Origin: Mycoplasmatales bacterium
GTDB lineage: Bacteria > Bacillota_I > Bacilli_A > Mycoplasmatales > JABAAY01
Assembly (NCBI GenBank): GCA_014238525.1
Contig: JABAAY010000004.1
Coordinates: forward strand, 1-40,203
Direction of reading: 5' to 3'
DNA: 40,203 bases
The notes below the pieces were generated by a model that saw only the letters and a program-made list of their open reading frames with translations, was not told the origin of the DNA and did no database searches. Shown one piece after another: positions 17,070 to 36,977 of this stretch (within the stretch, counting starts at the first letter, position 1; every line of letters begins with the position of its first letter). A program made the translations under genes and the position numbers.

Positions 17070-19631
17070 CTATGAAGTAGCGCCAATATTCATTCAAGTA
17101 CCGGTGATAATTACATTGCTTGCAAAGGTGACCCCAGTGATTGTTACATTTTCACCATTAATTGCTCCAAAACTTGTTTGTACAGTATTTAGATCGTAAG
17201 TTCCCGTGACTTCGGTAAGTGTTATTGTGTATGTAGGAGTATCCCCCGCACCACCAGCGTCTGTTCTTTGAACAGAAGTTCCTAGAAGACCTCCTGCTGC
17301 TAGTGAATTAACATCTTCAACTGGAACACTTAATGCTGTGGCAAGTTGATTTATTAAAAACACTGCACTTGGAGAGGTTGGAAGAATAGTTGAAAAACTC
17401 ATTCTTTGCACGATCGCATGTATTTCAATTTCTCTGCTGTCTACTGGCACAATACCGCTAACGCCTGTTTCAGGGTTAATTGACAAAGAAGCACCGTCAA
17501 ATCCTATTGAAACTCTCATTTCTCCAGAAAACGAATCTTGATTGGAAAGAGTGTTAACAACAGGCGCAAGTGCAATTCTGACTTCGTATCCTGAGCTGGT
17601 TGCTGTAATATTTGATGCACTAATGGATGCAAAAAATATGCTTGTAATTGTAGCGTTTGGTTCGCTAATATTAATGTGTGCAGTCATTGCACTTAACATT
17701 TCTTCAGCCAAAAGACCAAGATTGTTTATATCTGAACTGTTGTAATTCCTCAATTCATTAACATCACTTATTATTTGAGCAACAAATGTGCTTCCACTTA
17801 AACTTAAACCCGTGGTACCATCTGTAGCAATTGTAAACGAACCGCTTGTATAATCAATTGTTGTCACCGCAGTGCCACCAATGATTTCTCCTGTACTCGC
17901 AGTTCCCGTCATTGCCACACTAGCAGTAAAAATATCCCCTGATTCTGAAATGTCTTGAGTAGTAATTTCGGTAAAATTCAACTCCCTTACAGTGTTGCCT
18001 GTGGATACATCGGATAAATTATTATTTATAGAAACTAAGTAATTTTGCGCCAATCTTCCTATTTGTTGTCCTACAATGTATGAACTAATCTCATTAATAG
18101 CATTAACGATTACACTTTCATTAGGTAAATCGGACAAAGTAAGTCCCGTTACGCCGCCTGATGCAACAGATAATGTGGAGGTTACGGGATCATATGAAAT
18201 CGTTGCCACGGCATTTCCACTAATTGCCTGGCCGTCATCTGCTGTTCCTGTCATTGCTATAGTGACTGTATATACATTACTGTTCTCGCTTAAGTCTTCA
18301 GTAGTTATAGGTGAAAAGGTAAGACTCGTTACAAAAAGAGAATTATCCGCGCTTTCAGTTCGTATGTTATTATTAATTGCTGTTAAAAATTCTGCTGTTA
18401 CTCCCGATACCTGTGAGTTCGCTCTGTAGTCTTGCAAACCATTAATGCTTGTAACTATTCTATCTTCAACATTTCCTTCATTAACACCTAATCCAGTGAC
18501 AGTGCCTGCAACTAGAGTTTCACCAGAAATTGTAAATGAAGTGTTTATTTGCCCGGAAATAACATCATCCGTTGTAGTTAAACCTGTAACAGCGCCTGTT
18601 GAAACCGTATACTCGTTATTTGCGAATCTAATGGCTGCATTGTTTATTTGAGCAAACTGCATACTTTGAATGCTCGAGGAAGGGTCTGTTGCAAGATTAT
18701 TATTTATTTCTTGTAAAATGCTTCCAGCCAACCCTGTTGGTAAATTACTAGGGTTTATTGTGTAGTTGGAAAAAACATTTATAGCATCTCTTATGAATGC
18801 TGAGTTTTGGGGATTTATAATTTCAAGTTGTGAAACGCCTGTAACGCTTAAAACATCGTTTTGATTTGCTATAGCAACTCTGATTGTACCAAAGACGTCT
18901 CTAGAGATTTCAGAACTGCCGGAAGGTATATTTACTGTTGTTCCGCTCACAGAAAAATCAGCTTGAAAATTAGTGAATCCTTCTCCTGTAGTTGAAACAT
19001 TAGTGTTTTGTATTGGAGTAAATTGTAATGAGTCTAAAACATCTCCCTCTAGGTTGTTTCCAATTACAACATTTGTTTGAGCAATAAATTCTTCAGACAA
19101 ACCTGAATATATATTAGTTCTTGAATAATTATTTGTTGCATTTAAAGCAGAAACAATCTGACTAATAACTGCGGTGTTTGACACTTGTAAATTACTAACG
19201 TCAGAGGTTGCGGTGTCAATACTAAAATTTTCATTAACAAATCTAGCAGCAATAGTTATTGTGCCGGTTACAAGCAAGCTTGAGTTAGTTTCTCCACTTA
19301 TGTCGATATTAATCGACAATTCATTTGTAGTGCTATCGACAATAACGTTTTGGCTTTGCAATGCGGCAAAAGTTAGAGAATTAAGCTCTGAATTGGGCAC
19401 GCTGCTGGAAATTCCGTTATTGATTAAACTTATCACCTCTGTTTGGAAACCATCCGGACTAAAAGTCATTCTGTTGTATTGGTCAAGTCCGTTTAACTCA
19501 TTTGTGAAGGCAACGCTTCTATCTGTTGTAGGTTCAGAAGCACATGCTTGTGCAACGGCTGCTACCGCTACGCCGGTTCCTAATGCTGTTACACCCATTA
19601 AAGTTGCTAGTTTATTTTTGTTTTTTTTCAT
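17070..19631 (-). CDS. Large AQxC-family lipoprotein, 853 aa, six tandem ~115-aa repeats plus a C-terminal domain
   Basis: AVAQA-C30 lipobox; extends past TGA 17094 to TAG 17070; repeats visible by eye. Confidence 0.88.
17440..19508 (-). repeat. Six degenerate protein-level tandem repeats (112-121 aa)
   Basis: Anchor motif (I/F)xxx(I/L/V)NxxxxY starts at about 19508, 19157, 18794, 18458, 18110 and 17774, followed by 'INNN(L/I)', 'SLxF', 'ISG' and 'GVTGL'-like motifs. Confidence 0.85.
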
Positions 19632-19688
19632 GAAATTTCTCTTTTCTTTTATTTATATAGTACATTCTTATTTTTTGTTATTTTAATT

Positions 19689-20339
19689 TTATTTGATTTT
19701 TTTCAATCTATGTTTGTTTACTGTGACTGTAAAATCATTTATTAATACGAGAGTATACAAAGCCAAACCCAATACGAAATATAAGTCGCCAATGTTCGTA
19801 ATAAAGGAAACTTGACCGCGCGCGCCTGTAAAATACTGCCCTCAGTTTATATAAATGTAGTCTATAACAACCGGAAGTCCGTCTCGATTAGTAAAAATAA
19901 ATCTATCAACAAAATGACTAAATAAGCCTGTGAACATCAATCCCACAAATAAAGTGTGTGAAGATTTTTTAGTAAACAACAGCAGCAGCAATAATGGCGC
20001 TAATATGACAACGGAAACAATTCATATTCCCACCTGGTCTCGTCCTCCAGGAAAGGTGCCAAAGAATAAACCCTCGTTGCCAATTAAGTAAATTCCGAAA
20101 GCAGAAGTTGGTTCAGCTCTTCCTGTGGGAAAGTTATTCGTTGGTATTGTGTTAAATCCATAAATACTTGGATTGATAACAGCATAGACCGCAATAAGCC
20201 GTATGGATATGAAAATCAGAATCAAAAATAGAAAAATAAAAATTTTGCTAAAAATTATTTTTTTTAACCTTTGTTTGTTTGTTTGTTCTTTTAATTTTTT
20301 AAAATTCACTGATTTCTGCCTGTACAGTTTCTGAAACAT
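19689..20339 (-). CDS. lspA: Lipoprotein signal peptidase II, divergent
   Basis: Code 4: four hydrophobic segments, GNEGLFFG, GLFSHFVDRF, VVIDYI, ITNIGDLY (both catalytic Asp positions present). Start could be 20339 or 20390. Confidence 0.82.
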
Positions 20340-22266
20340 CTTGGGCAAAAATGTTTTTGCCGATGTACTCTCCACACAATAAAGAAACATCTAATTTCAT
20401 TGCAGTAATTAACAAAGTATGTGTGTCAATATTTATTAGAGCGGTTTCTATTTTGTTCTTTTTTATGTTATCTAATGATATCTTAAAGCCTTGTAATAAG
20501 GACCTATCCTTATGAACAGCATTAATGGTATACGGCTTAAAAAGTACAAAAGCTGGTTGGATTTTAGGAAGAAGTTCATGGTGTTTTTTGCTTTTGTAAT
20601 CAAAATTACTCAAAATTATTCTAATTTTATTTTCGTTTAATGTTTTTATTTTTTCAAGGAGCGTGTTTGTGATGGATGATAAATGTTCACAATTAAAGTC
20701 AATCATAATCTTGCTTGGGTTTATCCCAAAATTACGAATGCGTTCGACAAAAGAATGTGGATTAAATCATTCGTTATTTATAGAGCCTGCGTCATAAGTT
20801 ATGGCAAGGGGTTGTTTGGTGTTGCCCTGCAAAACGTATTGATTAATACTTAGTCCGGCGAAATACCTAAGCATTGTATCGTACAAAAATTTATCATATA
20901 CATAATCAAATAATTCTTTAACGTTGGAAAATCGATTCATCTTCGAAATATAGTAACGCGAGTTATAAAAAATGATTTTTGAATTAACTGAGGAAACGAC
21001 TGGCATGTATTCAACTTGTAAATCCCTTATGGGGAATAAATTAGATAAAGCACTAAATTTTTTGCTTTCTGTAATTCCTTCGTTTCATATCTTAGGGTTA
21101 AATATGGACACATGCTTACATTTGGTTGAATCAGGTTTTTGTAAAAAGTTCTTTTGATTGTAAGTCTCTAATTCTTCTAAAGAGTTAGAATGAACACCAT
21201 AATAACTCACTACACACCGCGGATTTATGCTTTTGTATTTGTTTTCGTTTTTTTGAATTTTTTTCTTAATGTTTAAAGCAGATTGTTCCAACAACAATAA
21301 GAAGTTGTCGTTTTTTAAGTGGTAATCTGGAGAGTCCATTTGCTCGCTAGAAACAACATTAGAGAGATTTTCAATTGGTTTAAATAATCCATATTGATCT
21401 TTTGTAATTTCAAAAAGCAAAATATCATCATTAGAATATGTGTGACCCAACTCATGCCGCAATTCATTAAGGAAAGACTGTTTTGCTCTTGTGCCGTGTT
21501 TAATTTCAAGAGTTTTTAATGCTTCGAAACCAAACGTTACAAAAAAACCAGCAGTTACATTTTTGATATTTATAAATTTTTCTATCTCAGTAAAAGCCAA
21601 GGAAGATCTGATAAATTTTTCATAAACGTATATGTTTACAATATTTAATTGAAATGCACTATTTACAACGGAAGTTATATAGGCAAAAGCAATAGAAAGA
21701 AGAGATAGAGAAAGAAAACTTCATAAAACACCATATAAGTTTGTGGTTTGATCAAGAGATGGGAAAGCCCTTGTTGGTGTAATAAAATAATAAATCAATA
21801 TTAGGCCCACAGTTTGAAAAATAATTGAAAGAACAATAGCTATGCTTTTATATTTTTTTAAAATAAGAGAAACAATTCAATAAAAAATAATTGCTACGAA
21901 GACAACAAGAAAAATTACATTGGTTTGTGTGCTTGATGAGTAATTAGCTAAATCAATTACCCAACTACTTGCAATAGTAAGAACGCCAACAATCGGATTT
22001 ATAAATATTCCTATCACCAAAGGGATTATTACGGCATAACTTATAGAAAAAAAGCTTTCCGTTGTTCTTTGAAATAACAAACTTTGGAATAAGTTTAGGA
22101 GAATAATGATCGCAGCTCATTCAAGAAAAATAACAGCACTATACACCTTTCTAAAATTGGAATTAATAAATGGCTGAAGAACAGCTCATGTCGTGGAAAA
22201 AATAATAATTATTAATAAAAGGAGTGCAAGATTAAGGAGAATTTCAAATACTATGGAATCTAACAT
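20299..22266 (-). CDS. Multi-pass membrane protein with degenerate GGDEF-like and EAL-like domains (655 aa)
   Basis: Four track ORFs share one frame from ATG 22266. About 200 aa of TM helices, then LEIKHG...LFEITKDQYGLF...VVSYYG (GGDEF-like layout), then VEYMPVV...GFKISLDNI...LLCGEYIGK (EAL-like layout). Confidence 0.7.
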
Positions 22267-22272
22267 TTTTTT

Positions 22273-22652
22273 TGGTGGAGATGGTGGGAATCGAACCCAC
22301 GTCCAGACTAAACAATCCTAAAACGTCTACAGTTTAGGGTGCCTTGTTTTTAACTATGAAAATATAAGACAACCAAAACTTCTCATAGCGAGTTCTCTAA
22401 AATTTCAACTGATTAGCGAGAAAATAATCAATCTATTCGGTTTATTTGGCGTTTGCCTGTAGACTACCGACTCATCTACAAGAAACGGGTTTCTGCTTTA
22501 TTAAGCAGTAGCAAAAGTGCTTGAAGCACCTCTACTTTGTAAGAAACCAAGGTCGACTTTTTTTTCGTCTGCGGTTATAAAACCTAGTGTCTATTAGGTA
22601 GACAACCACTGCAATTTTAGGTTGATAAAATCTGTCGAAGCCCTACATCCCC
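22273..22652 (-). ncRNA. ssrA: tmRNA
   Basis: 5' GGGGATGTAGGGCTTCGAC and 3' GTGGGTTCGATTCCCACCATCTCCACCA; 7-bp acceptor stem with the G3-U Ala identity pair; 380 nt; internal tag frame; smpB is nearby. Confidence 0.97.
22501..22572 (-). other. tmRNA tag reading frame (A)ADEKKVDLGFLQSRGASSTFATA**
   Basis: ATAACC followed by the GCA resume codon, open to tandem TAA TAA. Confidence 0.85.
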
Positions 22653-22658
22653 AATAAA

Positions 22659-22664
22659 ATTATA
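22659..22664 (-). promoter_or_regulatory. -10 box of ssrA
   Basis: TATAAT 6 nt before the mature 5' G at 22652. Confidence 0.65.
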
Positions 22665-22724
22665 GTTCTTTTTTGTTAATTTTTAAAAATTAATTTTACG
22701 AAATAAATATAAAATAAGTAAATC

Positions 22725-23681
22725 ATGAATAATAGAAAAAGTAAATTTAAAAAAGTGTTTTTGGGTGGCATTGGCGGTGCTGCAGTTATTACAAGTGTTG
22801 TAGCACAGGCATGTGGCGATGATAGTTCTCAATTCATAAATCAAAATTTTATACTGAAAGAAATAAACTCTTTTTCAGAAAATTTTAGAATAAATGAACT
22901 TACCCAAAATCAAGAAAACATGCGAGACGGAATTTTAAATACTGTAAACAATTTAAACGCTGGAATATATAATCAAAATCCCGCACGCACAACATATGAT
23001 CTTCTAGCAAATATAAATTTTCCCGAGCTTTCAATTTCAAATATTCGTGTGGTTCCTGGTTCGTTCAATCAGGATTTTATAATAAACTATGATTCGCCAA
23101 TAACTTTTATTGGTCAGAGCACACAATTCGAAGGAATTAACAAAAACTTTTCAAACGTACAAAATAATAGCGGCACGACTATTTTGATTACATTAAGCGA
23201 TAAAATTATACAAAATTTTGGGATTTTAAATATTGCTGCCGTTAATTCTTCAGAAAAAATTACTTTGCCAACCTTCCTGAGTCGTTTAGATATTGAAATT
23301 CTTTTGAATAAATTATCCAATGCTCAACAAAACGAAATATTTGACTATCAAGAATCACCTTCTTTTTATTCCTTAATTTCGTTTATTAATGCATTAGGTA
23401 TTCAACAAGGTGTAGATTTTTTTGGTGGTCAAGGATTTTTATTTTTAGAAAATTTTACTTTCGAAAATATTATTGAATACAATGAACAAACACTAAAAGG
23501 AAGAATTTTTATAAAAAGGACTGATTTTGGTATTCGAATCGGTAGTGGGGTGTTCAACAGTCAGTGGCAATTGCCTGGTGGGCAATCCGCTCATTTATTT
23601 GAAGAAAGTGTTGTTTTATCTTTTGAAGTTTTCCTGGGCTCTGGTGTGGACGGCAACGACTTGATAAGTTTTTATGTATAA
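22725..23681 (+). CDS. AQxC-family lipoprotein, 318 aa
   Basis: MNNRKSKFKK...VVAQA-C30; N/I/F-rich mature region. Confidence 0.85.
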   Translation: MNNRKSKFKKVFLGGIGGAAVITSVVAQACGDDSSQFINQNFILKEINSFSENFRINELTQNQENMRDGILNTVNNLNAGIYNQNPARTTYDLLANINFPELSISNIRVVPGSFNQDFIINYDSPITFIGQSTQFEGINKNFSNVQNNSGTTILITLSDKIIQNFGILNIAAVNSSEKITLPTFLSRLDIEILLNKLSNAQQNEIFDYQESPSFYSLISFINALGIQQGVDFFGGQGFLFLENFTFENIIEYNEQTLKGRIFIKRTDFGIRIGSGVFNSQWQLPGGQSAHLFEESVVLSFEVFLGSGVDGNDLISFYV

Positions 23682-24378
23682 AAAACAAATTTATACCGTG
23701 AAAAGCTTTGAGTGCCTTGAAAGCACTCAAAGCGAAATAATGTTGAAAAAATGGGATAAATACGAAGACTTTCTTTTTTTAGAAACCGAAAGCCAAACTA
23801 AGGGACTAACCCGAAAAAAAAACACTCTTTGACATTCAAAAAAAGGAGATATTCTTTTCTCTTTGCGTTTTAAATCAAAATTACTGAGTTCTCAAATAAT
23901 GTTTTTAAATTTTATAATCGCACAACAAATTATTAAGGTAATTGTTTCCTCCCCTGGAGCAATCCTGAAAATAAAATGGCCCAATGATGTTTATTTAGGG
24001 AAAGAAAAAGTTGCTGGTATTTTAACGAACGTTTCTTCCTTATTAAACACTGATGAAAAAATAGTCTACATTGGTGTCGGAATAAATACTTCTCAAGACA
24101 GAAGTAAATCTTCAAGAGTTAAAATTAACTCAAAGTGATTGTTGTTTGAAAAAATTGTTGAAAAAATTAAACGGTTTGAAGATAATCCTTCCTTGTATAC
24201 AAAAAAAATTCAAAAATCATTTACGAAGTATGATTATTTCAAAGACATGCATTTAATACATAAAAATAAAAAACATAAATCAATCGGCATAGATCGTTCT
24301 GGATTTCTTTTGATTGGTACTAGAGGGGAAATAATTACTATTTACGATACAAAAGAAATTCAATATATTAAAAAATAA
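23674..24378 (+). CDS. birA: Biotin--protein ligase (class I, no HTH), 234 aa
   Basis: Code 4 from ATG 23674: LESTQ, ETESQTKG...W(TGA)HSKKGDILFS, KIKWPNDVY, KVAGIL, IGVGIN, GIDRSGFLLI. Confidence 0.9.
23705..23733. repeat. Perfect 11-bp inverted repeat with a 7-nt spacer
   Basis: GCTTTGAGTGC-cttgaaa-GCACTCAAAGC. Confidence 0.9.
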
Positions 24379-24394
24379 TCTCTATAATTAGAAA

Positions 24395-24823
24395 GTGGAA
24401 AAACCCAAAAAAGCTAGTGAAAACTCAAAAAGCGTAAAGTTTAATGATTTTTGAAGTAAATGAAAAGACAACCCTTACTTTAAAACTACATTAACGTTGG
24501 TAGGAGTCTTATTTTTTGGAATTCCGGGAATAATAATTGTAGGTATTGCCTCTCAATTTGTCGATTCAAATCCCTCAAGAATAGCCAATGATTTTTTCTT
24601 TCAATTAGGAATAGCCATGTTTTTGATTTTCATCTTTTTTTCTTTGTTTGAGGTTTATTTTTTTATTTTAGAAACCATAACTCTTATTGCAAAAAAAAGT
24701 AAATTGAAAAAAAGTTTTGCTGTCGGTGTTTCATCAGATGGTAAAACAATTCCTCACGATAAGAAAAGTACTGACTTAAAAAAAAGTGTTGATGTTAAGA
24801 AAACTTCGTCTAAAAAGAAATAA
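24395..24823 (+). CDS. Hypothetical 2-TM membrane protein, 142 aa
   Basis: GTG 24395 (6 nt after TATAAT), open through two TGAs; two hydrophobic helices and a Lys-rich C-terminal tail. Confidence 0.75.
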
Positions 24824-24827
24824 ATTC

Positions 24828-25277
24828 TTATTTGAATTTTAAATTTCTATTCATTTCTCTGTCTAAGTCTCGTTTTTGAATTTCTCGTTTTCTATCGTGT
24901 AATGTTTTTGGCTTTCCCAAACCGACGTCGACTTTAATTTTATTGTTTTTTCAGTACATTTTAACTGGAATAACTTGCAATTTTTTTTCATTTTTCTTTC
25001 GAATTATTCTAAAAATTTCCTTTTTGTTTAAAAGCAATTTTCTTGTTGCACTATCGTTGTAATTAGGATCGGTATTGAATTTATATTTATTTATTTTTGC
25101 ATTAATTAAAAAGGCTTCCTCGTTACGAAAAACTACATAAGAATCTCTTAAATCGATTTCATTTTTTCTAAGAGACTTTACTTCGCTTCCGCTTAATACT
25201 ATCCCCGCTTCGTAGTTATCAATAAATGTATATCTATAGTTTGCGTTTTTATTTTTTGTGATTATTTTAAATGCCAC
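24828..25277 (-). CDS. smpB: SsrA-binding protein
   Basis: YEAGIVLSGSEVKSLR, RKLLLNKKEI, MYW(TGA)KNNKIKV, HDRKREIQKRD. Confidence 0.97.
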
Positions 25278-25286
25278 TTTTTTATT

Positions 25287-25598
25287 TTAATTTAAAATTA
25301 AAGTAATTCCATTACTAATAAACATTTCAGTTGTTACAGGTGATTCAGCCCTAAACAAACGAGCAGAAAGTATGGCGATTACAAAAATTACGGCCACAGT
25401 TCCAAAAATAACATATTTAAAAACAATTTCTGAAGTTCTCTCTTTGGATTGCTGAAAGAGATTGGCATCGCTAGCACCAGTTAAGGCTTGTCCTAGTCCC
25501 TGAACCTTCCCACCTTGTAACAATACTAAGAAAATAACCACTATAGATAAAATAAAAACTATGATCTGTATGGCTTCAAGGGTATTGGCGTCTATCAT
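25287..25598 (-). CDS. secG: Preprotein translocase subunit SecG
   Basis: Two TMs with VLLQGGKVQGLGQALTGASDANLFQQSKERTSE; upstream of smpB. Confidence 0.93.
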   Translation of the reverse strand: MIDANTLEAIQIIVFILSIVVIFLVLLQGGKVQGLGQALTGASDANLFQQSKERTSEIVFKYVIFGTVAVIFVIAILSARLFRAESPVTTEMFISNGITLILN

Positions 25599-25679
25599 AG
25601 ATACTATTATAACTTTAAATAAAAATAATTCAAATAAAAACGATATCAAATAACCTGCAAATAATAATAAAATAAGTGT

Positions 25680-26075
25680 GTGAAGAATTATTCTACTGAT
25701 CCAAAAATAAAACAGGCACTCAATAAAATACACGTAACAAGTATTGTTGGTCTCTCCATATTTATGTTTTTGTTCATTGTTTTTTTAGTTATCGGTATAA
25801 GTATTGCTGTGCCTAATTCCGCTGATACTCAAAATAACACGGAAACATCAATAATAATCGGTATTGTTATCATTATTATCGGTTTTATCTTTTTTCTTAA
25901 TTCAATGATTTTTGCTAATAATTTGATTCGTGTGTGAAGATTAAGTAAAAGCTGAACGAGTTACCATTATTTTTTGATAAATGCAATCCTTATGTTTGTT
26001 CTCTTAAATTGAATTTTTGCAATAATAATGCTTTTCTCATATAGAAAAATAAACCAAATTTGCGCGAATAACTAG
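25680..26075 (+). CDS. Hypothetical membrane protein (about 3 TM), 131 aa
   Basis: GTG 6 nt after TAAAAT; open through TGAs to TAG 26075. Confidence 0.72.
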
Positions 26076-27304
26076 GACAAACTAGCACTAGGAATTCAAA
26101 ACGAGAGAAAAACAATATAGTTTATAGCAGTAAATATGATGCTGTTTCTCAACCTTAATTTAAATAAAAATTGAGAATAAAAAAAAGATAGGTTAACTGC
26201 CACAAGAGAGAGCAGTAAAATTGTGGGTATAAATGAGTCTGAATCCGACCTAATTACCTCCAAAGAGTTTTGATTACCGGAAATAATGTCACCAATAAAA
26301 ATCAAGGAAAAAGTGAACAAGTTGTCTAAAAATAAAGCCTGTAAACCTTCTTTTTGTCTGTTGTTTTTAAAAAGGAAAAAAGTACTGCTTATTTCTGGCA
26401 ATGCAGCACTTATGCCTAGAAATAGTCCTCCTGCTGACACTTCGCTTATTCCGTATCCTCCTCTAGAAACTGGTAACGACATAGCGTTGACAGTAGCAGA
26501 CTGCAGGAAACCAAATCCAGCTAAAAGACACGAAGAAACAATTATTAGGATTCATATCCGAATTTGTCGTTTAGTTTTACCGACTATTTTGGTTTCACTA
26601 TTGCCAACGTTCAAGTTTTCATTGATTTGTTCGTTTTTAATTTCTTTGTTTACGTCTTGTAGAATAAATAAACTGTGTTTTTTTTCCAATGACAATATTT
26701 TTTTTCTCTTATTTTCTTTTGCTCCTAAAATAATAAAAGCCGCTAAAGTTCCTATGTACATGAAGAATGTTAATGCTGAAAAGATAGAAAAATTTGCTCC
26801 GCCAATAAATACGGTTGTTGAGTTAACGGTTATACCAATAATTAAAAATGCAACAACAACCATGATAGCAATATATGATAGTAAGTTATCTCTGAAAACA
26901 TGTTTACCGACCAAATTCATTTTTTTGTTTTCTTTGATTGGTTTCTTTTTTGTTTTGTTTTTCATTTTTTGAAATGCAAATAAAATTAAAATATTTGTAC
27001 TGGCAATTATGACAAGAAAAACATTACTTCCGATAGCGCCAGTGATGCCAATGGTTGAATTGCCGAATGCTGATTGTGACACCATCCCGATTATTTCCGG
27101 AATGGTTGTTATAATAGGCAATAAAAGAAAAGTGAAAACAATTCCTAGATTAGAGTCTTTTTTGTAAAAATATTCAACCTGATCTATAAGAAGTTTAGCA
27201 GCAAGAACTACTCCGGCAGAAAAGAAAATAAAAGAGAATCACAAAATTGCAGGCTGAAAAAAGAATACGCTGGCTGGTATTCCGAATATGGTTGGTGGTT
27301 GCAC
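26072..27304 (-). CDS. Ca2+/cation antiporter (CaCA, Na_Ca_ex-like), 410 aa
   Basis: GTG 27304; alpha-1 ITTIPEI...GAIGSNVF and alpha-2 SAALPEI...LFLDNLF; two hydrophobic halves separated by a charged loop. Confidence 0.82.
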
Positions 27305-27310
27305 CTAAAA

Positions 27311-27320
27311 ATTATATAAT
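27311..27320. promoter_or_regulatory. Palindromic ATTATATAAT giving a -10 box on each strand
   Basis: Lies in the 24-nt gap between divergent starts GTG 27304 (-) and ATG 27329 (+). Confidence 0.65.
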
Positions 27321-27328
27321 AATAAACA

Positions 27329-27670
27329 ATGGCAATAAAATTTATTCATTCTAGGCGATTGAAAAAAATACTTCAAAATGAAAAATGATTTATTCTTGAT
27401 ATTAGGCCTCCTGATGATAATTTTGAGTCTCATATTGCTGGCAGCCTTAATATTTATATAGAAATGTTTTTTATGCCTAAAATTTTAGGAGTTTTTAAAA
27501 AAATACCAGAGAAAAAGAAAATTCTTGTCGTAACACGAAACGGAAGGAATTACATGCGCTTAGTGCAAACATTAAATGCACATGGTTGTAATAACGTCTT
27601 TGTATTAAAAAATGGATACGAGTCTTTAAACAAAAATGAACCTTATATTGAAAGTAAAAACATTTATTAA
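27329..27670 (+). CDS. Rhodanese-like single-domain protein lacking the active-site Cys
   Basis: FILDIRP, SHIAGSLNI, ILVVTRNGRN, VFVLKNGY; 113 aa. Confidence 0.85.
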
Positions 27671-27897
27671 TAATTGAAAGAAAGCAATTCACTTATGGTA
27701 ATTTCAAGCGCTTCGGCTATTTTTCAAATTGCTTTTATCGAGAGATTCCTTTTTCCTAATTCTACATCATTAATGTAATTGAAATGTAAATGAGCCTTGT
27801 CAGCAAGTTTTTTTTGAGTCATATTGCGTTTTATTCTTAATAATCTTAGATTTGCTCCAAATTTTGCAATTATTAAATCACTATCCTTCTTTAGCAT
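27667..27897 (-). CDS. XRE-family helix-turn-helix regulator, 76 aa (not in the ORF track)
   Basis: MLKKDSDLIIAKFGANLRLLRIKRNMTQKKLADKAHLHFNYINDVELGKRNLSIKAIW(TGA)KIAEALEITISELLSFNY. Confidence 0.92.
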
Positions 27898-28630
27898 ATT
27901 CAATTGCTCTCCTTAATATGTTATTTATTCCTGATATTGAAATGGGCTTCAGGTGTGTTGAGTTAAATATTTGACTTAGTTCTTTCAAGCTTGCAGAAGA
28001 ATTATTTTTTCTAAGCTCGCAAATCTCCAAAAACAATCCCTCTAATGATGGATGATAACGAGATGCAATAAGATTTATCGCACTTATTTGCTTTATTGCG
28101 GCTTTATCTGTTTTAATCTGATTTAGAATTTCAATATTGTTGGCTTTTACAATAGAATTTATAAACCCTGATTCAACGATGTTTTTTTCAAATTTCAAGA
28201 AAGATTTTGAGGCACCGAGTATTGCTAGAATATCGAGAATTTCTTCTGTTTTTTTCAAATAAAAAGTAGTTAGTCCATTTCTTTTGTATTTTTTGAATTG
28301 TGGCGAATATGAAGCAAACAATTTGCAAATTGTTTTTTCATTCTTGTAGTTATAGTTTCTTATCTCAAAATGAAGATTGCCCTTTTGAAAATTACTAATA
28401 CTTCCCTTGCTGAAAAAAGCTCCTTGGAGAAACGTAAAAAAACTTTTTTTAGTAAAGTCATTTACTGTAAAAACATAATCTTCTACTAGATACGATTGTT
28501 TTTGAAAATAACTGTGGTTAATTACCGAGTTTTTAGAAAGCAGTTTTATTCCAAGTAAAAAGTACTTTAACTCCTTTTCGTCACTTAAATTATTTAAAAC
28601 CTCTTCTTTTATATCTTTTGAAAAGCTCAT
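27881..28630 (-). CDS. whiA: DNA-binding protein WhiA
   Basis: MSFSKDIKEE, FLQGAFFSKGSIS, HFEI, ANNIEILNQIKT, SLKEL, ISISGINN. Confidence 0.92.
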   Translation of the reverse strand: MSFSKDIKEEVLNNLSDEKELKYFLLGIKLLSKNSVINHSYFQKQSYLVEDYVFTVNDFTKKSFFTFLQGAFFSKGSISNFQKGNLHFEIRNYNYKNEKTICKLFASYSPQFKKYKRNGLTTFYLKKTEEILDILAILGASKSFLKFEKNIVESGFINSIVKANNIEILNQIKTDKAAIKQISAINLIASRYHPSLEGLFLEICELRKNNSSASLKELSQIFNSTHLKPISISGINNILRRAIEYAKEG

Positions 28631-28631
28631 T

Positions 28632-29264
28632 TTATTTAATGTCTATAACCCTAACATCGTAGATTTTATGTATTTTTTCTGCCAATCATTCAGAAAATGA
28701 TTCAGCGATTTCTGTGTTTCCTTGTGAACCAACCCCTATTACTAAAGGAAAACCAAAATTTTGTTGCTTTAAAAAACTATTTACTGCCACCAGCGGATTG
28801 TTATGTCTTTTCTTGTTTTCACCAGAAATGCCTCATGCCCGAAGGTCTATTATAAAGTTAGTATCAGAAGGTATCCCGTTTTCAAAAGAAAATGTTTTCA
28901 AAATGACTACTTTGTTGTTGTCTGCAAAAACATCAATATACAAACTTAAAGTTTGTTCTACTTGGTTTTGGTGATATCCCGTTACATCTATTACGTGACT
29001 TCTTATTTTATAATTATCAAAAAAACCTAAGGAATGTCTTTTTTTCATGTGTCTGTTATAAAAATAAATTGCTTCTGGCCTTCTAAAAATCTTATTGAAC
29101 TCTAGCGTTTTGTCTTCTCATTGTTTGTTTTCATTTAAATATAGAAAAACATTTCCCGAAAAATATCTTTTTTTATACAGTTTATAAGCTGATTTTTTTA
29201 AGTAATAGAAAGCATATCCTTGTGATACTTTGTCATTGCCAGCAACAATTAATTGTAATGCCAT
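28632..29264 (-). CDS. rapZ: Degenerate RapZ/YvcJ-like protein, 210 aa
   Basis: ILKTFSFENGIPSDTNFIIDLRAW resembles the SFGFKxGxPxDxDxxxDxR motif; it sits upstream of whiA as yvcJ does in Bacilli. Confidence 0.7.
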
Positions 29265-30362
29265 TTATTTTTTTTTCTTGTTATGATCATCTTTAATAAA
29301 ATAATCAATCTCGCCTAATATTTCGTTGGCTAATTTTTTATTTTCTTTTTTTGAGTCGTAATGTTCGTCAACAACATTTTCAGGATTATTAAAGGACTCG
29401 GTATTTAAGAGTCTTTCTTCAGGAATGGGTTCATTCTTATCTACAGGCATTTTCTCAGGTTCAATGCCAATAATTTTAGCATTAACATCTGAATCAATTA
29501 GCCCTGTAGCCTTTGATGCGAAATGGCCTACGTGTGCTACTTGAGGTTTGTCCCTCTTTGGAAGAATTGCATAGTGTCAAACAATAATTCAAATAAGAGC
29601 TGCCAAAGAGAATATGACGATTATTATTGCCGATACAAAAGAGAAACTACCCCCTAAAATATCTGAAGAGTTCCGAAAGTTCTCAGTAATGGCTCGGAAC
29701 GCACCTCATCAAATCCCTGTTATTGCTGCCCCCATTCCAATTCTGTATCCCTTTATTTTTGGAAATACAAAAACAACAAGGAAGAACAAGGTTAAATTAG
29801 ATAATGCCTCGTATAGAAATAACGGTTGCAGAAAGCCGGTGTTGCTGGTACCGGGCAAATGGAAAAATTCCGCAATTACTCTGAAAAAATTGGAAATACT
29901 TGCAATATCGAACGGCACATTCAGAAATATTTCCTGATTAAAATAATTCCCAAGCCTTCCTACTGCCTGTCCAACGACTAATGCAGGAACAATAGCTTCA
30001 AAATAAGTGAATACTGATACTCCTGTTTTTCAAGATGATCATCATATCCCGCCAATAATAATTGGAACGCCAACGATAAGAGCTCCCAATATGGAAAATC
30101 CTCGAATTCCGCCTGCATCAATCCCGAAAAAGAGTCGTCAAAAGGCTATAAAACCTCCAATATTGTCTAATTCTCCACTAAATATTAGGGAGGCAAGTCT
30201 CGCTCCAAACAAAGCAAAAATAGCAAAAACAAAAAATCCTATTTCAACATGAAGTAAGTCTATTCCTCTTCGTTTTGACCTAACTAAACTTATAGCAAGA
30301 GCAATAAGTATTCCAGATGCAAAGAAAACACCATATCAATTAAACCCTGAAAAATCTACCAT
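29265..30362 (-). CDS. lgt: Prolipoprotein diacylglyceryl transferase with a charged C-terminal extension, 365 aa
   Basis: FNW(TGA)YG, FGARL, GQAVGRLGNYFNQE, QPLFLYE, FRAITENFR. Confidence 0.94.
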
Positions 30363-30420
30363 CTGTCTATTTCCATAATTAGTATTTTACAAAATTATAA
30401 GTTTATTTACCACTTATATT

Positions 30421-30852
30421 TTACTCAAATATGTCTAATGGGTTCACTCCTTTGGTATTGGAGTAAATGAAAAATGAAACTTGGTATACAAAAAGAAAAA
30501 CAACATTCACCATAAAAAACGCAAACCCAGAAACCGCTAAGTTTCAAATTTCCAAATAGTTGGCACCGAGATTAACATTCTGCTGTGCAATAATAATATT
30601 CCGTATTTCGAAAAGCGACTCGCTTGTCTCTCCCGTTAGCACATTTAAATTAATAGAACTTAAATCACCAAACATTAGAGGTCTGTTGAAGTTTATTAAA
30701 AAACCACATGTTAGTAAGATTGACGCGACTATCAAAACAATCACAAAGATGAATCAAACATAATACCAGGGAATTTTAAGCGCTTTTTTAAAATTTCTAA
30801 GACGTCTTTCTTTTTTGCTTAAAATTTTGTGTATTGTATTGGTTTCTGTCAT
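30421..30852 (-). CDS. Hypothetical 2-TM membrane protein, 143 aa
   Basis: ATG 30852; basic N-terminus, TM, ~50-aa loop, TM; open across TGAs. Confidence 0.75.
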
Positions 30853-30881
30853 ATTAAATTGCTTTTTTTAAAATCTTTATC

Positions 30882-31478
30882 CTACGAAGTGGGAGGGTTT
30901 GGAAATATTTCGACAAAATTAGTTGCATTAGCTTGCACACCGAATGAATTAGCATTTATTTGAGGTCTTTGATTCGAATCAAGTGATGCAGTTATAACTA
31001 TCATAAAACCAGGAGTATTGTTTGCAGCGCCTCCTCATATTCCTCTATTAGAAACTCCTCCAGAAGAAAGTGATGCTGTAACAAGTAACTCGGTAATTGT
31101 AATAGTAAACATGTTACTATCTTCGTCAAAGGCTACGTTAGAATTCTCCAAAGTGCCGATATAAACGTTATTTAATGTGATTGGTTCAAGATCTGTGTCG
31201 GTTGGACTGGCTGTGGGCGTTCCGCCCATCATATTGTTATAAATTAATACTCTTGCTCCTCGTACAAAGTCTCTTTGAATTTGAGTTTGGGGATTCTCGA
31301 GATTAAATATTCCAGAATCAAAATTATTAAGATCGTTCACTATTTCTTCAATATTGTCGGTTGTTGTTGTTCCAGTGGCACACATTTGAGCAACCGCTCC
31401 AATTGTTGTTGCGCCTGCAAGAGTTGTAATTCCTAATGCCGCGGAAATGATTTTTGTATTTTTGCTTTTTTTATTCAT
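30882..31478 (-). CDS. AQxC-family lipoprotein, 198 aa
   Basis: AVAQM-C33; AGAAGG SD upstream; extends past TGA 31035 to TAG 30882. Confidence 0.85.
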
Positions 31479-31504
31479 GTAAATATAACCTTCTTGTTAT
31501 TATT

Positions 31505-34342
31505 TTAATACTTTTTTAAAATTTTTTGTAAATATAAAGCGGTATAGCCGTTCTGCTTTTCAACAATCTGCTCTGGCGTTCCTTTAGTGACTACTTCTCC
31601 TCCGAATTGTCCTCCGTCGGGACCCAAGTCGATGATATAGTCAGCAACCTTTATTACTTCCAAATTGTGTTCAATAACAACTACTGTATCTCCGTTATTC
31701 ACTATTCAATCTAAAACCTCTATTAGTTTTTTTACATCATCTGTATGCAAACCTGTCGTAGGTTCGTCCATTATGTATATGCTTTTCCCGGTTGGCTTTT
31801 TTTGTAAAAAGGTCGCAAGTTTAACTCGTTGAGCTTCTCCACCAGACAATTGTGTGGCTGGTTGCCCTAGTTTAATATATCCCAAGCCTACATCGAAAAT
31901 AATGTTTAGCTTACCCATGATTTTTGGATGATTCTCTCAAAAAATTAAGGCCTTTTCAATTGTCATATTCAAAATGTCAAAAATGTTTTTTCCTTTATAT
32001 CTAATTTGCAAAGTTTCATTATTGTATCTTTTGCCTTTACATTCTTCGCACTCCACAAAAACATCGGGTAAAAAATTCATGGATATTCTTAAGACTCCAT
32101 CACCTTCACATTTTTCGCATCGCCCTCCCCGAACATTAAACGAGAATCTTCCTTTTAAGTAACCTCTGATTTTTGATTCTGGAGTATCCGCGAAAACATC
32201 TCTTATTTCGTTAAACACACCTGTATAAGTTGCTGGGTTGCTTCGAGGCGTTCTTCCAATTGGATCTTGCGAAATATTTATGATTTTATCGACATAATTA
32301 CTTCCTTTTATTTCTTTATAAGCCGCAGGTTTAATATTTAAATATTTTTTTTCGTGTAGTAACCCCTTGTATAGGGTCTCATTTATTAAAGTAGACTTTC
32401 CACTTCCACTAACGCCTGTAACACAAATGAACTTGCCCAATGGAAAAGTAACATTTATGTTTGCGAGGTTGTTTCCTTTGGCTCCTTTTATTTCTATTTT
32501 TTTAGAATTACCGCCTCTTCGTTTACGAGGAATGGGAATAGTTTTTTTCTGAGCCATATATTGACCAGTTAATGATTTATCGTTTTCCATTAGTTCTTCG
32601 GGAGTTCCTTCAGCAACTATATTTCCACCGTGAATTCCTGCACCAACGCCCAGGTCTACAATTCAGTCGGCTGATTCTAAAGTTTCTTCATCGTGCTCCA
32701 CAACAATTAAAGTATTTCCTAAATCCCGCATTTTTTTAAGTGTTTCAATTAATTTTTTGTTATCTTTTTGATGTAGTCCGATTGAGGGTTCGTCAAGAAC
32801 ATATAAAACCCCCGTCAAGTGTGAACCAATTTGAGTAGCAAGCCTAATTCTTTGTGCTTCTCCGCCACTTAGGGTTTGTGAACTTCTAGATAAATTCAGA
32901 TAACTCAATCCTACATTTTGCAAAAATTCTAATCTATGTAAAATTTCATTCAAAACCAATTTTGCAATTTGGAATTCTTTATCAGTTAACTTTAAGTTTT
33001 TTGTAAATAGTACAGCGTCATTAATATCCTTTTGAACAAAATCATCTATGTTAATATCATTTAATTTAACACTTAACGCTTCTTCGTTAAGTCTTTTCCC
33101 TAAACACTGTAAACACTTTTTATCGCTCATAAATTTCTTATAAAATTTTCGGGCGCCTTCACTGCTAGTTTCCATATATCTTCTTTCGATCAATCTTGCA
33201 ATGCCTTCTATATAATCATATTTTTCATATCTATTGCCACTTTTGGTTACTATCACATAGTGAATTTCTTCATCGCTGCCTCTCATTAAAATTTTTACTT
33301 CGCTTGGTGTGAAATTACTATAGGGAGTATTTAAGTCTATATTATAGTGATCACAAAGCTTTTTAAAATTTTGTCACTCGATGTTCATTGTTCCAATTAT
33401 GTTTTTTATATATTCTATTGCACCTGCATTTAGTGTTTTACTTTTGTCTGGGACAAGAATGTCGGTATCAACTTCGAGCCTTACCCCAAGCCCCTTACAC
33501 GCGGAACACGCGCCCACAGGTGAGTTAAAACTAAATAATCTTGGTTCTAAATCTGAAATTGAAAATCCGCATTTTTTACAAGAATGTTTCTGAGAATAAA
33601 GAACTTCTTCTTTATCCAGAAAATTAACTAATACTAGTCCCCTTCCGTAATTTGCAGCAACCTCCACCGCCTCATATAGTCTAGAATTAGTCTCTGCTTC
33701 TTTATTTAAAATCAACCGATCAATAACAATCTCCACATTATGTTTTTGATTTTTATTAATGTTTATTTCATCATCCAAAGAAACAGTAACTCCGTCAATT
33801 CGAATCCTTAGAAAACTTTCTTTTCTTAATTGTTCAACAAGTAAATGATGCCCACCTTTTTGTGATCTAACGACTGGTGATAAAATTTCTATTTTTTGTC
33901 CTTCGTCGTGAGTGTTTATTTGATCAACAATTTCTTGTACAGTTTGCGCTTGAATGATTCCGTGATTTTTAGGACAGTGTGGGTTACCAATTCTGGAAAA
34001 CAATAATCTAAGATAGTCATATATTTCGGTAACGGTTCCAACCGTACTTCTTGGGTTGTGGCTAGTTGATTTTTGGTCGATGGAAATAGAAGGCGACAAT
34101 CCTTCGATTGATTCGACATCAGCTTTGCTGACTGAATGGAGAAATTGTCTTGCATATGAACTCATAGACTCAACATATCTTCTTTGCCCTTCAGCATAAA
34201 TAGTATTAAACGCTAAAGAGGTTTTGCCGCTTCCGCTAACTCCGCTGAAAACAACCAACTTGTTTTTTGGAATATTAAGACTAACAGATTTTAAATTGTG
34301 TTGTTTCGCTTTTTTTACAATGATGAAATCTTTTGTGTTCAT
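31505..34342 (-). CDS. uvrA: Excinuclease ABC subunit A, 945 aa
   Basis: Two Walker A motifs (GVSGSGKT/S), two LSGGEAQR, zinc fingers; five fragments in frame across TGA. Confidence 0.98.
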
Positions 34343-34402
34343 TATAGTTATTTTACTGAAAAATTGATTTTAAACAAAATTAAAATTACGCGATAAAAGT
34401 TT

Positions 34403-34408
34403 TATAAT
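34403..34408 (+). promoter_or_regulatory. -10 box of a probable leaderless lipoprotein transcript
   Basis: TATAAT 6 nt before ATG 34415. Confidence 0.6.
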
Positions 34409-34414
34409 TGTGAA

Positions 34415-35404
34415 ATGAAGAAAAAATACAAAAAAATATTCAAAATATTTTCGTTATCCTCAATAGGTGCGTCTTCAACTGTTCTGGTTGCTCAATCGTG
34501 TTCCAATATTCCTTCTGCTCCTCCGGAAATTCTCAATGATTTAAGTATTATCTTTGCCAACTTAAATCATAATAATTTGAATGTGAACACGTCTCCTGAA
34601 ACGGAAGTGATACTGGATAGTTTTTTAGATGTGATTAATGCTTCTACTTCCCTCCAAAGCATTGATGAAAATTTTGATGAAATTTTAGCAATGAATAATC
34701 TTTCTGTACAAAGTATAACGGACGAGGGTGGTGGTGCTTTTCGTATATCCTTGCCTACAACAGTCACAATAGAGGTCAGAAATTCCAAAATTTCTGCCTC
34801 ACAAACAACAATAAAATTGCAAAATACCACAATTAATTTTTTTCTTGTTGTTAGAACATCTAATGATTCAGAAATAAATTTTTCAACCGTTTCACTTCCT
34901 AATAATGATTTTGAATATGTCTTTGATAGGGATTATTCAAACTCTCAAATAAACAGTTTATTTACTAGCACTATTTTAGAAACAATTAACGCTACTTCTC
35001 CTACGAAGGGATCTTTATTAAGAAGTTCTGCGAATGATAATGCAAATTTTAATTTACTGGAAACAGAAATCAATGGCAATTATAATTTTTTAAGTGTTCG
35101 TGGTTTTGTTCACAAACTAAATTCTTTATTGCTTTCGCCTAACTCAACATTTACAAATGGAATTTTTGCTCCACTTGAAGGCGGAGAATACGGAATTTCC
35201 TTAACTTGAGACAACATGAGTCGAACTGGGATTTTAACTTTTAGTGATTCCTCGGTTTTTTCTAGAGTGGAAATGGATGGAACTGTTGTTAACGATTCTT
35301 GATTAGAAAATAATACAGAAGTGTTTACAAACTTTCGTTCTCCCTTAAATTTGTCTTTTACAATTGTGCAAACAAGTTCTGAATTGGCAACCTTTCTATT
35401 TTAA
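34415..35404 (+). CDS. AQxC-family lipoprotein, 329 aa
   Basis: MKKKYKKIFK...VLVAQS-C29; open to TAA 35404. Confidence 0.83.
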
Positions 35405-35465
35405 CTATGATTGAGTTTTTTATTTGTTATAATACAAATCAATCTAGTCATGGTTTTAGTAATTA

Positions 35466-36977
35466 ATGGATAAACAACAGTTAGAGCAAAACAATGCTCT
35501 AAAATATAAAAATGGAGTTTTTGATCAATCACAGAGAAAAAAAGGATTGTTATTTGCCTTTATAACAATTATTTTAAGCAGTTCACTAACATCTGTAACA
35601 GGCTTGGTAATAATTAATGTTAGTCAATTCTTTGGAGAATCACAGGCACTAATACTTGCGTTTTCACTATTGGTGATATTGTTTTCGGTTTTTGGAAATT
35701 TAATTTCTGGACCTTTAGTTCATAAATTCGGAGCTAAGAAAAATATTCTCTTTAGTTCTATTTTGTTTTTTCTTTCGGCTGCTGGCACAGCAGCTTTAAT
35801 AACTTCGAGCACAACTACACTTGTTTTGTATGGTGTTTTCTTAACATTACAGGGAATAGCAAACGGATGAATTCATCCCTCCGTATACACCTTGGTTTAT
35901 GGTTACACCTCGCAGAAAAGAAAAGAAAAAACATCATTAAATTTAGTTTTAGCTTTTTATGGACTAGGTTTTGTTGTTTTTTATTTGTTGAACACTTTGT
36001 TGTCACATACAATTGAACAAACAGTAACAAATGGTGCTGGAAGCAGTATATTTTGACATTCGGCATTTGCAATCAATGCATTTTTCTATCTTGTTGTTGT
36101 AGTTTATGTTTCGTTTAGTAAAGTTACAGAAATATCTGCCCGGGATTTAGAAAGAATGGCGTCTGGTATCACGAAAAAGAAAATTATTCCAAAATGGGCG
36201 AAATCAAGCATAAAAAAATATTCGTCGCTTTCTCAATTTAAAGAACAAGAAATTAGAAACAAAAACGGTAAGAGTTTCTGAAGCAACAATAAATATTGAA
36301 TTATTTCTCTAATTTTTCTCTTATTTGCAGCTGGATTTTATTCTTCCACGGAATATTTTTGAACCAATTATGGAATTACTTTTTTGGTTGGCGCGCGTTC
36401 TAGCGATGGTGCCTTCATAAACGGACGTGGTTTTTCTGCATTGAACGCAGGGCTAATTTTAAGTACTTACAATATTGGATTAACAATCGCAAGATTTGTT
36501 TACTATTTTATAGGCGAAAGGAAAAAAAGCAAGGGAGCGATATACTATTTATTTTTAATATACATTTTAACTTTTGTTGGCATATCTCTTGTATCGGTTG
36601 GTAACCCTAGTGAAGACTTAAGCTTATCGGTTAATTACATATTATTCTTTATTCAGGGGACAATTTCTGGGATTTTGTACGGGGTTTTTATAGGTTATGT
36701 ATTAAAGCTGTCTCAAAAATACTCGAATATTGTTTCTTCAGTAACGGTTGCTATATATAATTCTGCGGCATTTTTAACAGCAGCAATTTTTTCATTAACT
36801 GCCCATTTGGCTATAGTACAAGGAGGAGCGATTGGACATGAAATTTTGGTTGCCCCAGTGTATGCAATGCCTGTGATAAGCGTTCTTATTTTGATTTCAT
36901 TCGTTATTGCACATTATTTTAACTCTAGAAACACAAAAGAGTGAAATTTTGAAAGAGTTAGTTTTCAGATACTCTAA
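35466..36977 (+). CDS. MFS transporter, 503 aa
   Basis: About 12 TMs, motif A-like GPLVHKFGAKK, central Lys-rich loop; in frame across TGAs. Substrate unknown. Confidence 0.85.

Follow-up and report, generated by a model that had tools for sequence, protein, structure and literature searches.

Membrane proteins follow the positive-inside rule of von Heijne, under which Lys (K) and Arg (R) are enriched in cytoplasmic loops and are treated alike. Avoidance of Lys in particular is known from lysine deserts, defined in the available excerpts of the literature as continuous Lys-free regions of at least 150 amino acids or at least 50% of a protein (PMC10665810, PMC13696103); the deserts described there belong to single cytosolic proteins or toxins and are linked to proteasome systems that use ubiquitin or Pup (PMC10665810, PMC10169902, PMC13696103). 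Catalytic chains of AB toxins have a bias of Arg over Lys (Hazes and Read 1997, London and Luongo 1989, both as cited in the excerpted PMC13696103), and Rickettsia parkeri, according to the excerpt of PMC8232902 used here, methylates the lysines of its outer-membrane proteins and so blocks their ubiquitylation. We report here on a 40,203-nt window, which is one whole contig (JABAAY010000004.1, C72 in our numbering) of a wall-less Mycoplasmatales bacterium, and on the genome to which it belongs (G000). A first-pass annotation of this window had noticed Lys-free but Arg-containing loops in the membrane proteins LspA, Lgt, SecG and MgtE, in an MFS transporter and in a protein of no known family, and had proposed that the constraint acts on the whole cell surface.

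The genome contains lysine deserts by the sequence definition, with Lys-free stretches of up to 846 residues, amounting to more than 90% of a protein and with Arg kept. Like those already described, they are long and can be read as shielding from Lys-directed modification; unlike them, they are defined by topology, take in the whole extracellular face, and extend even to loops of a few residues. AB toxins share the asymmetry of Lys and Arg under selection in host-exposed proteins, but as far as the excerpts go these are single secreted subunits that pass through host endoplasmic-reticulum-associated degradation (ERAD), whereas the proteins concerned here are the bacterium's own housekeeping and structural surface proteins. 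The R. parkeri shield likewise neutralizes Lys amino groups across the surface and evades covalent tagging by the host (PMC8232902, in part), with the difference that its lysines are kept and enzymatically masked; here they are absent from the genes (homologues of the protein lysine methyltransferases, PKMTs, were not searched for). As an analogy, and going by the available part of that account, this shield is the nearest functional counterpart. A literature search that reached few subscription journals found no report of topology-defined, proteome-wide exclusion of Lys on a bacterial surface. The words "extracellular" and "secreted" do not occur in the 2026 lysine-desert review (PMC13696103), nor do "Mollicutes" and "membrane protein" in the 2023 survey, or "lysine" and "lipoprotein" in the available part of a paper on marine invertebrate Mollicutes (PMC11535214). 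The phenomenon is a compartment-wide form of lysine avoidance that is not previously reported in the literature searched.

The genome is an incomplete assembly of 666 kb in 127 contigs, 77% complete, with 32% G+C and with TGA read as Trp. Genes were called with a caller that combines open reading frames (orfs) with a codon score, using translation table 4; this yielded 694 genes at a coding density of 92%, and the predicted proteome is 9.5% Lys and 3.4% Arg. Among 40 sampled relatives only one, G001, is of the same genus and family, the others representing other families of the order; the nearest SecY beyond the genus is 48% identical. Five genomes from five different Mollicute families (G003, G004, G010, G012, and G002) served as controls and were processed with the identical gene caller and scripts. 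Coverage was complete for G003, 540 of 576 kb for G004, and 400 kb each for G010, G012 and G002; for the sister genome G001 it was 186 kb.

Mature lipoproteins contain 0.82% Lys in this genome (31 proteins, 12,491 residues) and 0.55% in the sister genome, compared with 7.6–14.3% in the five controls. Cytoplasmic proteins contain 8.7–12.8% Lys across all seven genomes, with 10.9% in G000. The depletion is not restricted to lipoproteins: the OppA-type binding protein (SBP_bac_5) has only 5 K and 39 R in its 905 mature residues, and together with five large ectodomains (two of an FtsX-like permease, two of a SecDF-like protein and one of an ABC-2 permease) it accounts for 23 K and 104 R in 2,558 residues; outside loops of at least 60 amino acids hold 6–11% Lys in the controls. 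There are 24 Lys-free runs of at least 200 residues outside predicted transmembrane (TM) helices, 19 of them in lipoproteins, and the longest spans 846 residues in all.

Topology was assigned with a home-made hydropathy predictor and with textbook topologies, and the loops were also compared without regard to orientation. In proteins with at least four TM helices, 37 of the 101 loops of 25–49 amino acids are Lys-free in G000 and 14 of 39 in G001; the corresponding numbers for loops of the same length in the controls are 9/88, 2/78, 7/62, 5/77 and 1/60 (24/365 pooled). Loops of at least 50 amino acids are Lys-free in 13 of 66 and 4 of 28 cases in the two genomes of the genus, and in 2/66, 0/37, 0/28, 0/38 and 0/53 in the controls. 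When sides were assigned by an identical TopPred-like pipeline, proteins with at least 30 outside residues and no outside Lys numbered 23 of 55 in G000 and 8 of 20 in G001 (controls: 0/73, 1/39, 3/28, 1/57 and 0/31).

A curated set of 13 polytopic housekeeping proteins was chosen for agreement of predicted TM number and N-terminal orientation with known topology: SecY, TrkH, YidC, MatE, CdsA, OppB, OppC, DgkA, two LspA, two MFS proteins, and a Na/Ca exchanger. Nine control orthologues were used for comparison; LspA, CdsA, the Na/Ca exchanger and one MFS protein (MFS-a) had no orthologue in the control DNA covered. The curated proteins have 4 K, 40 R and 6 H (His) in 1,285 outside residues and 247 K, 87 R and 24 H in 1,526 inside residues, and the control orthologues have 49 K, 18 R and 26 H in 1,140 residues outside and 212 K, 63 R and 16 H in 1,282 residues inside. 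The ratio K/(K+R) is 0.09 outside and 0.74 inside in G000 (4:40 versus 247:87, p = 4e-17), and 0.73 and 0.77 in the controls (49:18 versus 212:63, p = 0.52). The outside K/R ratio, which the first-pass annotation had singled out as the decisive comparison with orthologues in other Mollicutes, distinguishes G000 from the controls (Fisher p = 8e-12). K-rich and K-free loops alternate cleanly along single polytopic proteins, as in SecY, whose segments hold in order 3K, 0K1R, 3K4R, 0K2R, 1K, 0K1R, 2K1R, 0K1R, 3K2R, 0K, and 3K4R; none of 119 SecY homologues has five or more Arg outside, as this one does (0 K, 5 R).

The positive-inside rule had been offered as a partial explanation, and the counts bear this out. 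As the rule predicts, K+R make up 21.9% of inside residues (334/1526) and 3.4% of outside residues (44/1285), with loops alternating. The rule and the control Mollicutes treat the two residues alike, however, and G000 breaks this symmetry: outside Lys is removed about 14-fold further, outside Arg stands at about twice the control level (3.1% versus 1.6%), and the exclusion reaches long translocated domains, to which the rule does not apply. Lys exclusion therefore exists in this genome; it is one-sided, absent from five other Mollicute families, and common to the sister species.

The loops from which the idea arose lie in genes whose identities are confirmed by Pfam matches of the code 4 gene models, which also add a Na/Ca-exchanger-like protein and an EAL-domain membrane protein. 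All five named peptides were located exactly, and each has no K and one or two R: residues 54–103 of LspA (nt 20031–20180, 2 R), residues 142–180 of Lgt (nt 29823–29939, 1 R), residues 125–142 of SecG (nt 25308–25361, 2 R), residues 309–322 of the MFS transporter (nt 36390–36431, 2 R), and residues 397–415 of MgtE (nt 15127–15183, 1 R), these last lying in the 24-aa outside loop between TM3 and TM4. The sixth, a loop described as about 50 residues long in the two-TM protein at 30421..30852 (minus strand; no Pfam match), is 51 residues with 0 K and 2 R, and is predicted to be outside, following an inside N-tail with 6 K and 3 R. Together the six stretches comprise 191 residues without Lys, the probability of which is 2e-4 if Lys occurs at the 4.3% of control outside loops and 5e-9 if it occurs at the 9.5% of the proteome. 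Their predicted sides are consistent with the textbook topologies from solved structures: N-in with four TM helices for LspA, N-out with seven for Lgt, N-in with twelve for MFS, a cytosolic N-domain followed by five TM helices for MgtE, and an outside C-tail for SecG.

Segment counts for the window genes are as follows. In lspA (signal peptidase II; 19689..20339, minus strand; Pfam Peptidase_A8), segments of 32, 47, 7, 27 and 16 residues carry in order 9K2R, 0K2R, 2K, 0K2R, and 4K1R, so that the two outside loops together have 0 K and 4 R. The MFS transporter (35466..36977, plus strand; Pfam MFS_1; 12 TM, N-in) has 0 K and 2 R in the 91 residues of its six outside loops and 29 K and 8 R in the 172 residues of its seven inside segments, and the Na/Ca-exchanger-like protein (26072..27304, minus strand; Pfam Na_Ca_ex; 10 TM) has 0 K and 2 R in 98 outside residues and 26 K and 7 R in 119 inside. 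SecG (25287..25733, minus strand; Pfam SecG, residues 55–124) has 2 K in its cytoplasmic loop and 0 K with 2 R in a 26-aa outside C-tail (nt 25308–25361 and beyond). A two-TM protein at 24395..24823 (plus strand) has tails with 8 K and 15 K around an 18-aa outside loop with 0 K and 1 R. In Lgt (29265..30362, minus strand; Pfam LGT) there is no K in the outside N-tail, in loop 2 or in the head loop (nt 29823–29939). The mgtE gene (14902..16371, minus strand; Pfam MgtE_N, CBS, and MgtE) sits just beyond 19689..36977, the range to which the first-pass annotation had assigned the feature.

Five lipoproteins are encoded in the window. The largest (17070..19631, minus strand), with lipobox VAQAC, has 4 K in its signal peptide and 0 K, 19 R and 2 H in its 823 mature residues; those at 11947..13176 (plus strand; 379 mature residues, 0 K, 10 R, 0 H) and 30882..31478 (minus strand; 165 residues, 0 K, 5 R) are also free of Lys when mature. 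Exclusion is incomplete in the lipoprotein at 34415..35404 (plus strand; 300 residues, 4 K, 9 R), and the one at 22725..23681 (plus strand; 288 residues, 7 K, 8 R) is the least depleted surface protein of the window. With lipoproteins, the OppA-type protein, large permease ectodomains and short housekeeping loops all poor in Lys, the proposal of a constraint on the whole surface, beyond one protein family, is upheld. As evidence taken one by one, the loops fare less well: all are indeed Lys-free, but Lgt above all resembles other Mollicutes, and single loops carry little weight because the positive-inside rule and family conservation already lower Lys there; it is the pooled counts that give a strong signal.

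Several observations show that the pattern is under selection. Signal-peptide n-regions with 3–6 K precede stretches of up to 846 residues that have none, and along single polytopic proteins K-rich loops alternate with K-free ones; contrasts of this kind inside genes cannot stem from gene-level composition, horizontal origin or codon effects. Although a single mutation would turn 30% of the codons of mature lipoproteins into Lys codons, no more than 55 of 12,054 encode Lys. Between G000 and G001 the mature lipoproteins have diverged more than cytoplasmic proteins (18.7% versus 10.9%), and differences involving Lys number 20 of 865 in the former (2.3%), 293 of 1,445 in the latter (20.3%), and 17 of 81 in lipoprotein signal peptides; substitutions creating Lys in mature lipoproteins are under-represented about tenfold. 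Where control orthologues have an outside Lys (56 cases), G000 keeps it at two positions and mostly has Arg, Thr, Gln or Asn instead, which are one-step neighbors of AAA/AAG; of 249 such positions inside, 110 retain Lys. The lipoprotein at 17070..19631, 853 amino acids in all, has an 83%-identical orthologue whose mature part also has 0 K. Its homologues are confined to the genus apart from one 27%-identical protein from another source (P0124, 648 aa), which has an identical signal peptide and a mature part without K or H. Selection keeps Lys, and to some extent His, out of the outward-facing protein of this lineage.

The His depletion, too, is confined to the outside. Lipoproteins of G000 contain 0.31% His, compared with 1.86% in cytoplasmic proteins and 1.2–1.8% in control lipoproteins, and the curated outside segments contain 0.47% versus 2.28% in control orthologues (p = 1e-4); this fits an avoidance of nucleophiles. 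Acidity is not raised, with D+E at 10.0% in lipoproteins versus 12.8% in cytoplasmic proteins (control lipoproteins 6.5–16.2%) and at 6.5% in outside loops versus 7.5% in control orthologues, so that the combination of low Lys and raised D+E that marks a halophile-type acidic proteome is absent from G000. Lipoproteins are also somewhat poor in Tyr and Trp; since in membrane proteins Tyr is low inside as well as outside, neither residue is counted as side-specific.

We consider it probable that Lys has been purged from the whole extracellular face in this marine lineage of wall-less Mollicutes and is kept out by selection through a process directed at primary amines, covalent attack being preferred. 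The property selected against would be the nucleophilic primary epsilon-amino group, since the equally cationic and chemically inert guanidinium of Arg is retained; the retention of Arg also disfavors electrostatic, translocation and halophile-type explanations. A wall-less cell would display little but lipid and protein, and deletion of Lys would strip it of almost all surface amino groups. The preferred agent would act outside the cell, in the host niche, by covalent attack on surface amines, and candidates may include quinones, aldehydes or transglutaminase, as agents of cross-linking or tanning by the host, and opsonins that react with amines, thioester proteins among them; tagging of the ubiquitin type would apply if the cells sit in the host cytosol, and the main alternative that is not covalent would be cleavage by a Lys-specific protease. 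Extracellular covalent capture is preferred because His, another target of electrophiles, is also depleted. A more specific form of this proposal, which we put forward only tentatively and hold to be rather doubtful, is an "amine-stealth" coat: an early-branching marine animal host might capture microbes covalently through exposed amino and imidazole groups, and the symbiont might have responded by deleting Lys and much of its His. The chemistry could be that of thioester opsonins, transglutaminase, quinone or aldehyde cross-linking or, in a glass sponge, even amine-catalyzed deposition of silica.

Avoidance of ubiquitin is, among the other explanations, one to which we give a low but appreciable probability. 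It supposes that naked cells in the host cytosol escape xenophagy with a surface that offers host E3 ligases no acceptor sites, which would be the genomic counterpart of the Rickettsia methylation shield and of the preference for Arg over Lys in the A chains of AB toxins. The strict asymmetry of Lys and Arg on every exposed segment speaks for it; the R. parkeri shield (PMC8232902) and the Lys-poor toxin A chains (PMC13696103) are precedents, as far as the excerpts go, and the available part of PMC11535214 places a marine invertebrate clade of Mollicutes next to intracellular symbionts of mycorrhizal fungi. Ubiquitin chemistry does not account for the outside depletion of His, however, and nothing in the sequence speaks to whether the cells live inside or outside host cells. 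Neither an OTU deubiquitinase nor an ATP/ADP translocase (TLC) was matched in the 77%-complete genome, a result of little weight given that the search controls were silent as well.

Evasion of proteolysis is less probable still. A Lys-specific endopeptidase, in the niche or in the bacterium itself, would leave Lys-free surface proteins uncut, and a specificity of the Lys-C type predicts what is seen, exclusion of Lys alone with Arg tolerated, alike on all exposed segments. Most digestive serine proteases also cut after Arg, though, and the His depletion is again unexplained. No Trypsin, Trypsin_2 or subtilase (Peptidase_S8) domain was matched in the 77%-complete genome with search controls that worked, which argues mildly against self-protection from a Lys-protease of the bacterium's own. 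The CN_hydrolase domain of Lnt was likewise without a match in the same 77%-complete gene set.

That no special selection is at work we regard as very improbable. Such an account would invoke the positive-inside rule with family-conserved loops, composition or G+C content, a handicap of positive charge in translocation, or halophile-like acidification. It draws on the outside loops of Lgt and SecY, which are Lys-poor in many Mollicutes, and on the controls, where Lys is about fourfold lower outside than inside. It is opposed by the equality of K/(K+R) on the two sides in the controls set against the 0.09 and 0.74 of G000, by the alternation of K-rich and K-free segments inside single genes, and by the occurrence of long Lys-free ectodomains in this genus only when compared with the controls. 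Arg is enriched about twofold outside, which argues against a cause in charge or translocation, and SecA, SecY, SecG, YidC and a SecDF-like protein are all present; nor is D+E raised, as acidification would require.

Polyamines and Lys-rich and His-rich proteins play a role in biosilicification, and Arg-rich polymers likewise precipitate silica. The idea that in a silica-depositing host exposed amines and imidazoles would nucleate silica on the cell, so that Lys and His were removed, matches their joint depletion on the outside only but is hardly credible, since Arg is enriched despite that property and the host is recorded only as "marine metagenome" and as a coded organism.

A number of points weigh against the proposal of a surface-wide, amine-directed purge. 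Exclusion is not absolute: about 0.3–1% Lys is left outside, and 4 and 7 K persist in two lipoproteins of the window. In 13 other Mollicute orthologues (a 14-sequence alignment that includes G001) the three outside segments of Lgt have only 0–3 K, and 27 of 119 SecY homologues have no outside Lys; Lgt alone, or the Lys count of SecY alone, was accordingly rejected as a means of telling G000 from other Mollicutes. The controls represent five of the 15 families in the order, three of them were covered in part only, and they are related to one another, so that the Fisher tests and p-values overstate independence. The predictor chooses among models by K+R and so favors a K-poor outside, a bias that applies equally to the controls, and four of the 13 candidate control orthologues were dropped for mismatched TM number. 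Automatic parity topologies, derived from single-sequence or alignment-averaged hydropathy, were rejected as noisy, with helices missed or over-split. Their low threshold let cytoplasmic enzymes pass as TM proteins, and their pooled outside Lys of 3.8–8.9% was dominated by wrongly sided cytoplasmic domains (MgtE_N/CBS, GdpP, ABC nucleotide-binding domains, FtsK, PTS EIIA/B, and a phage tape-measure protein); we therefore relied on the orientation-free loop test, the counts of Lys-free sides from a single pipeline, and the curated set. Neither Gln, the partner of Lys for transglutaminase, nor Ser and Thr, the hydroxyl targets of thioester proteins, are depleted. The data do not firmly separate the candidate processes, and no selecting agent is identified from sequence.

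Some features of the genes themselves may be recorded. The lipobox VAQ[AGQSM]C is common to about 28 lipoproteins, and the five in the window have no Pfam match. LspA (Peptidase_A8) has two paralogues in this genome of about 0.7 Mb, the one in the window and one at G000:C39:46410-47246 (+); the outside loops of both are Lys-free, and the second has an 84-aa N-tail holding 18 K. The C-terminal cytoplasmic tail of Lgt (29265–29576, minus strand) is 104 amino acids long and rich in K and E, with 15 K; in the 14-sequence alignment this tail is long (55–104 aa) in six other sequences and 14–35 aa in six. In the secG orf a hydrophobic extension, some 50 amino acids long, precedes the Pfam match and overlaps a 131-aa orf on the opposite strand (25680–26075, plus strand; 3–4 TM, no Pfam match). 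Translation of secG probably begins at an internal codon, and of the overlapping pair one reading may be no real gene. At 16374–16980 (minus strand) a gene for c-di-AMP cyclase (DAC domain) is apparently split: a 141-aa orf stops within the domain (profile positions 2–77 of 119) and is followed by a 73-aa orf.

Elsewhere in the genome, the locus G000:C61:35999-40186 (L171) encodes a 1,395-aa protein with two FtsX-type permease modules, whose ectodomains of about 430 and 600 amino acids hold 11 K and 41 R. The ZIP transporter at G000:C22:11428-12411 (L195) has 2 K in its predicted outside N-tail; an internal Met about 25 residues downstream would drop both, so the assigned start codon probably lies too far upstream. 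A phage tape-measure-like protein (PhageMin_Tail; G000:C34:4786-6870, L204) is K-rich with 70 K, from which it follows that prophage virion proteins stand outside the surface rule.

The segment of the window from 17070 to 26075 is nearly complete in one sequencing run labelled "marine metagenome"; the runs so labelled that contain part of the window are from one study. Four runs of a second study, labelled with a coded organism, contain 0.32–0.46 of the sampled words from 17070–26075, which suggests a related strain within the sequencing data of a named organism. No RNA run is among the sequencing runs listed as containing this stretch.

If the proposed purge is real, the notion of a lysine desert, so far applied to single proteins, would come to cover a cellular compartment. 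In G000 the Lys-free segments mark the outside face, and thus provide a built-in topology ruler for membrane proteins of no known family. Intact cells are predicted to be nearly inert to labelling with NHS (N-hydroxysuccinimide) esters, and R-to-K variants would be tagged, cross-linked, or cut by host material. Should the amine-stealth form hold, the effector chemistry of a host would for the first time be seen to impose a topology-defined amino-acid rule on an entire proteome. More generally, an entire bacterial surface would be under a rule of "no primary amines outside" that has reshaped SecY, YidC, LspA, transporters and antigens, and the rule would serve as a sequence-only marker of an uncharacterized host–symbiont interaction in an unculturable lineage.

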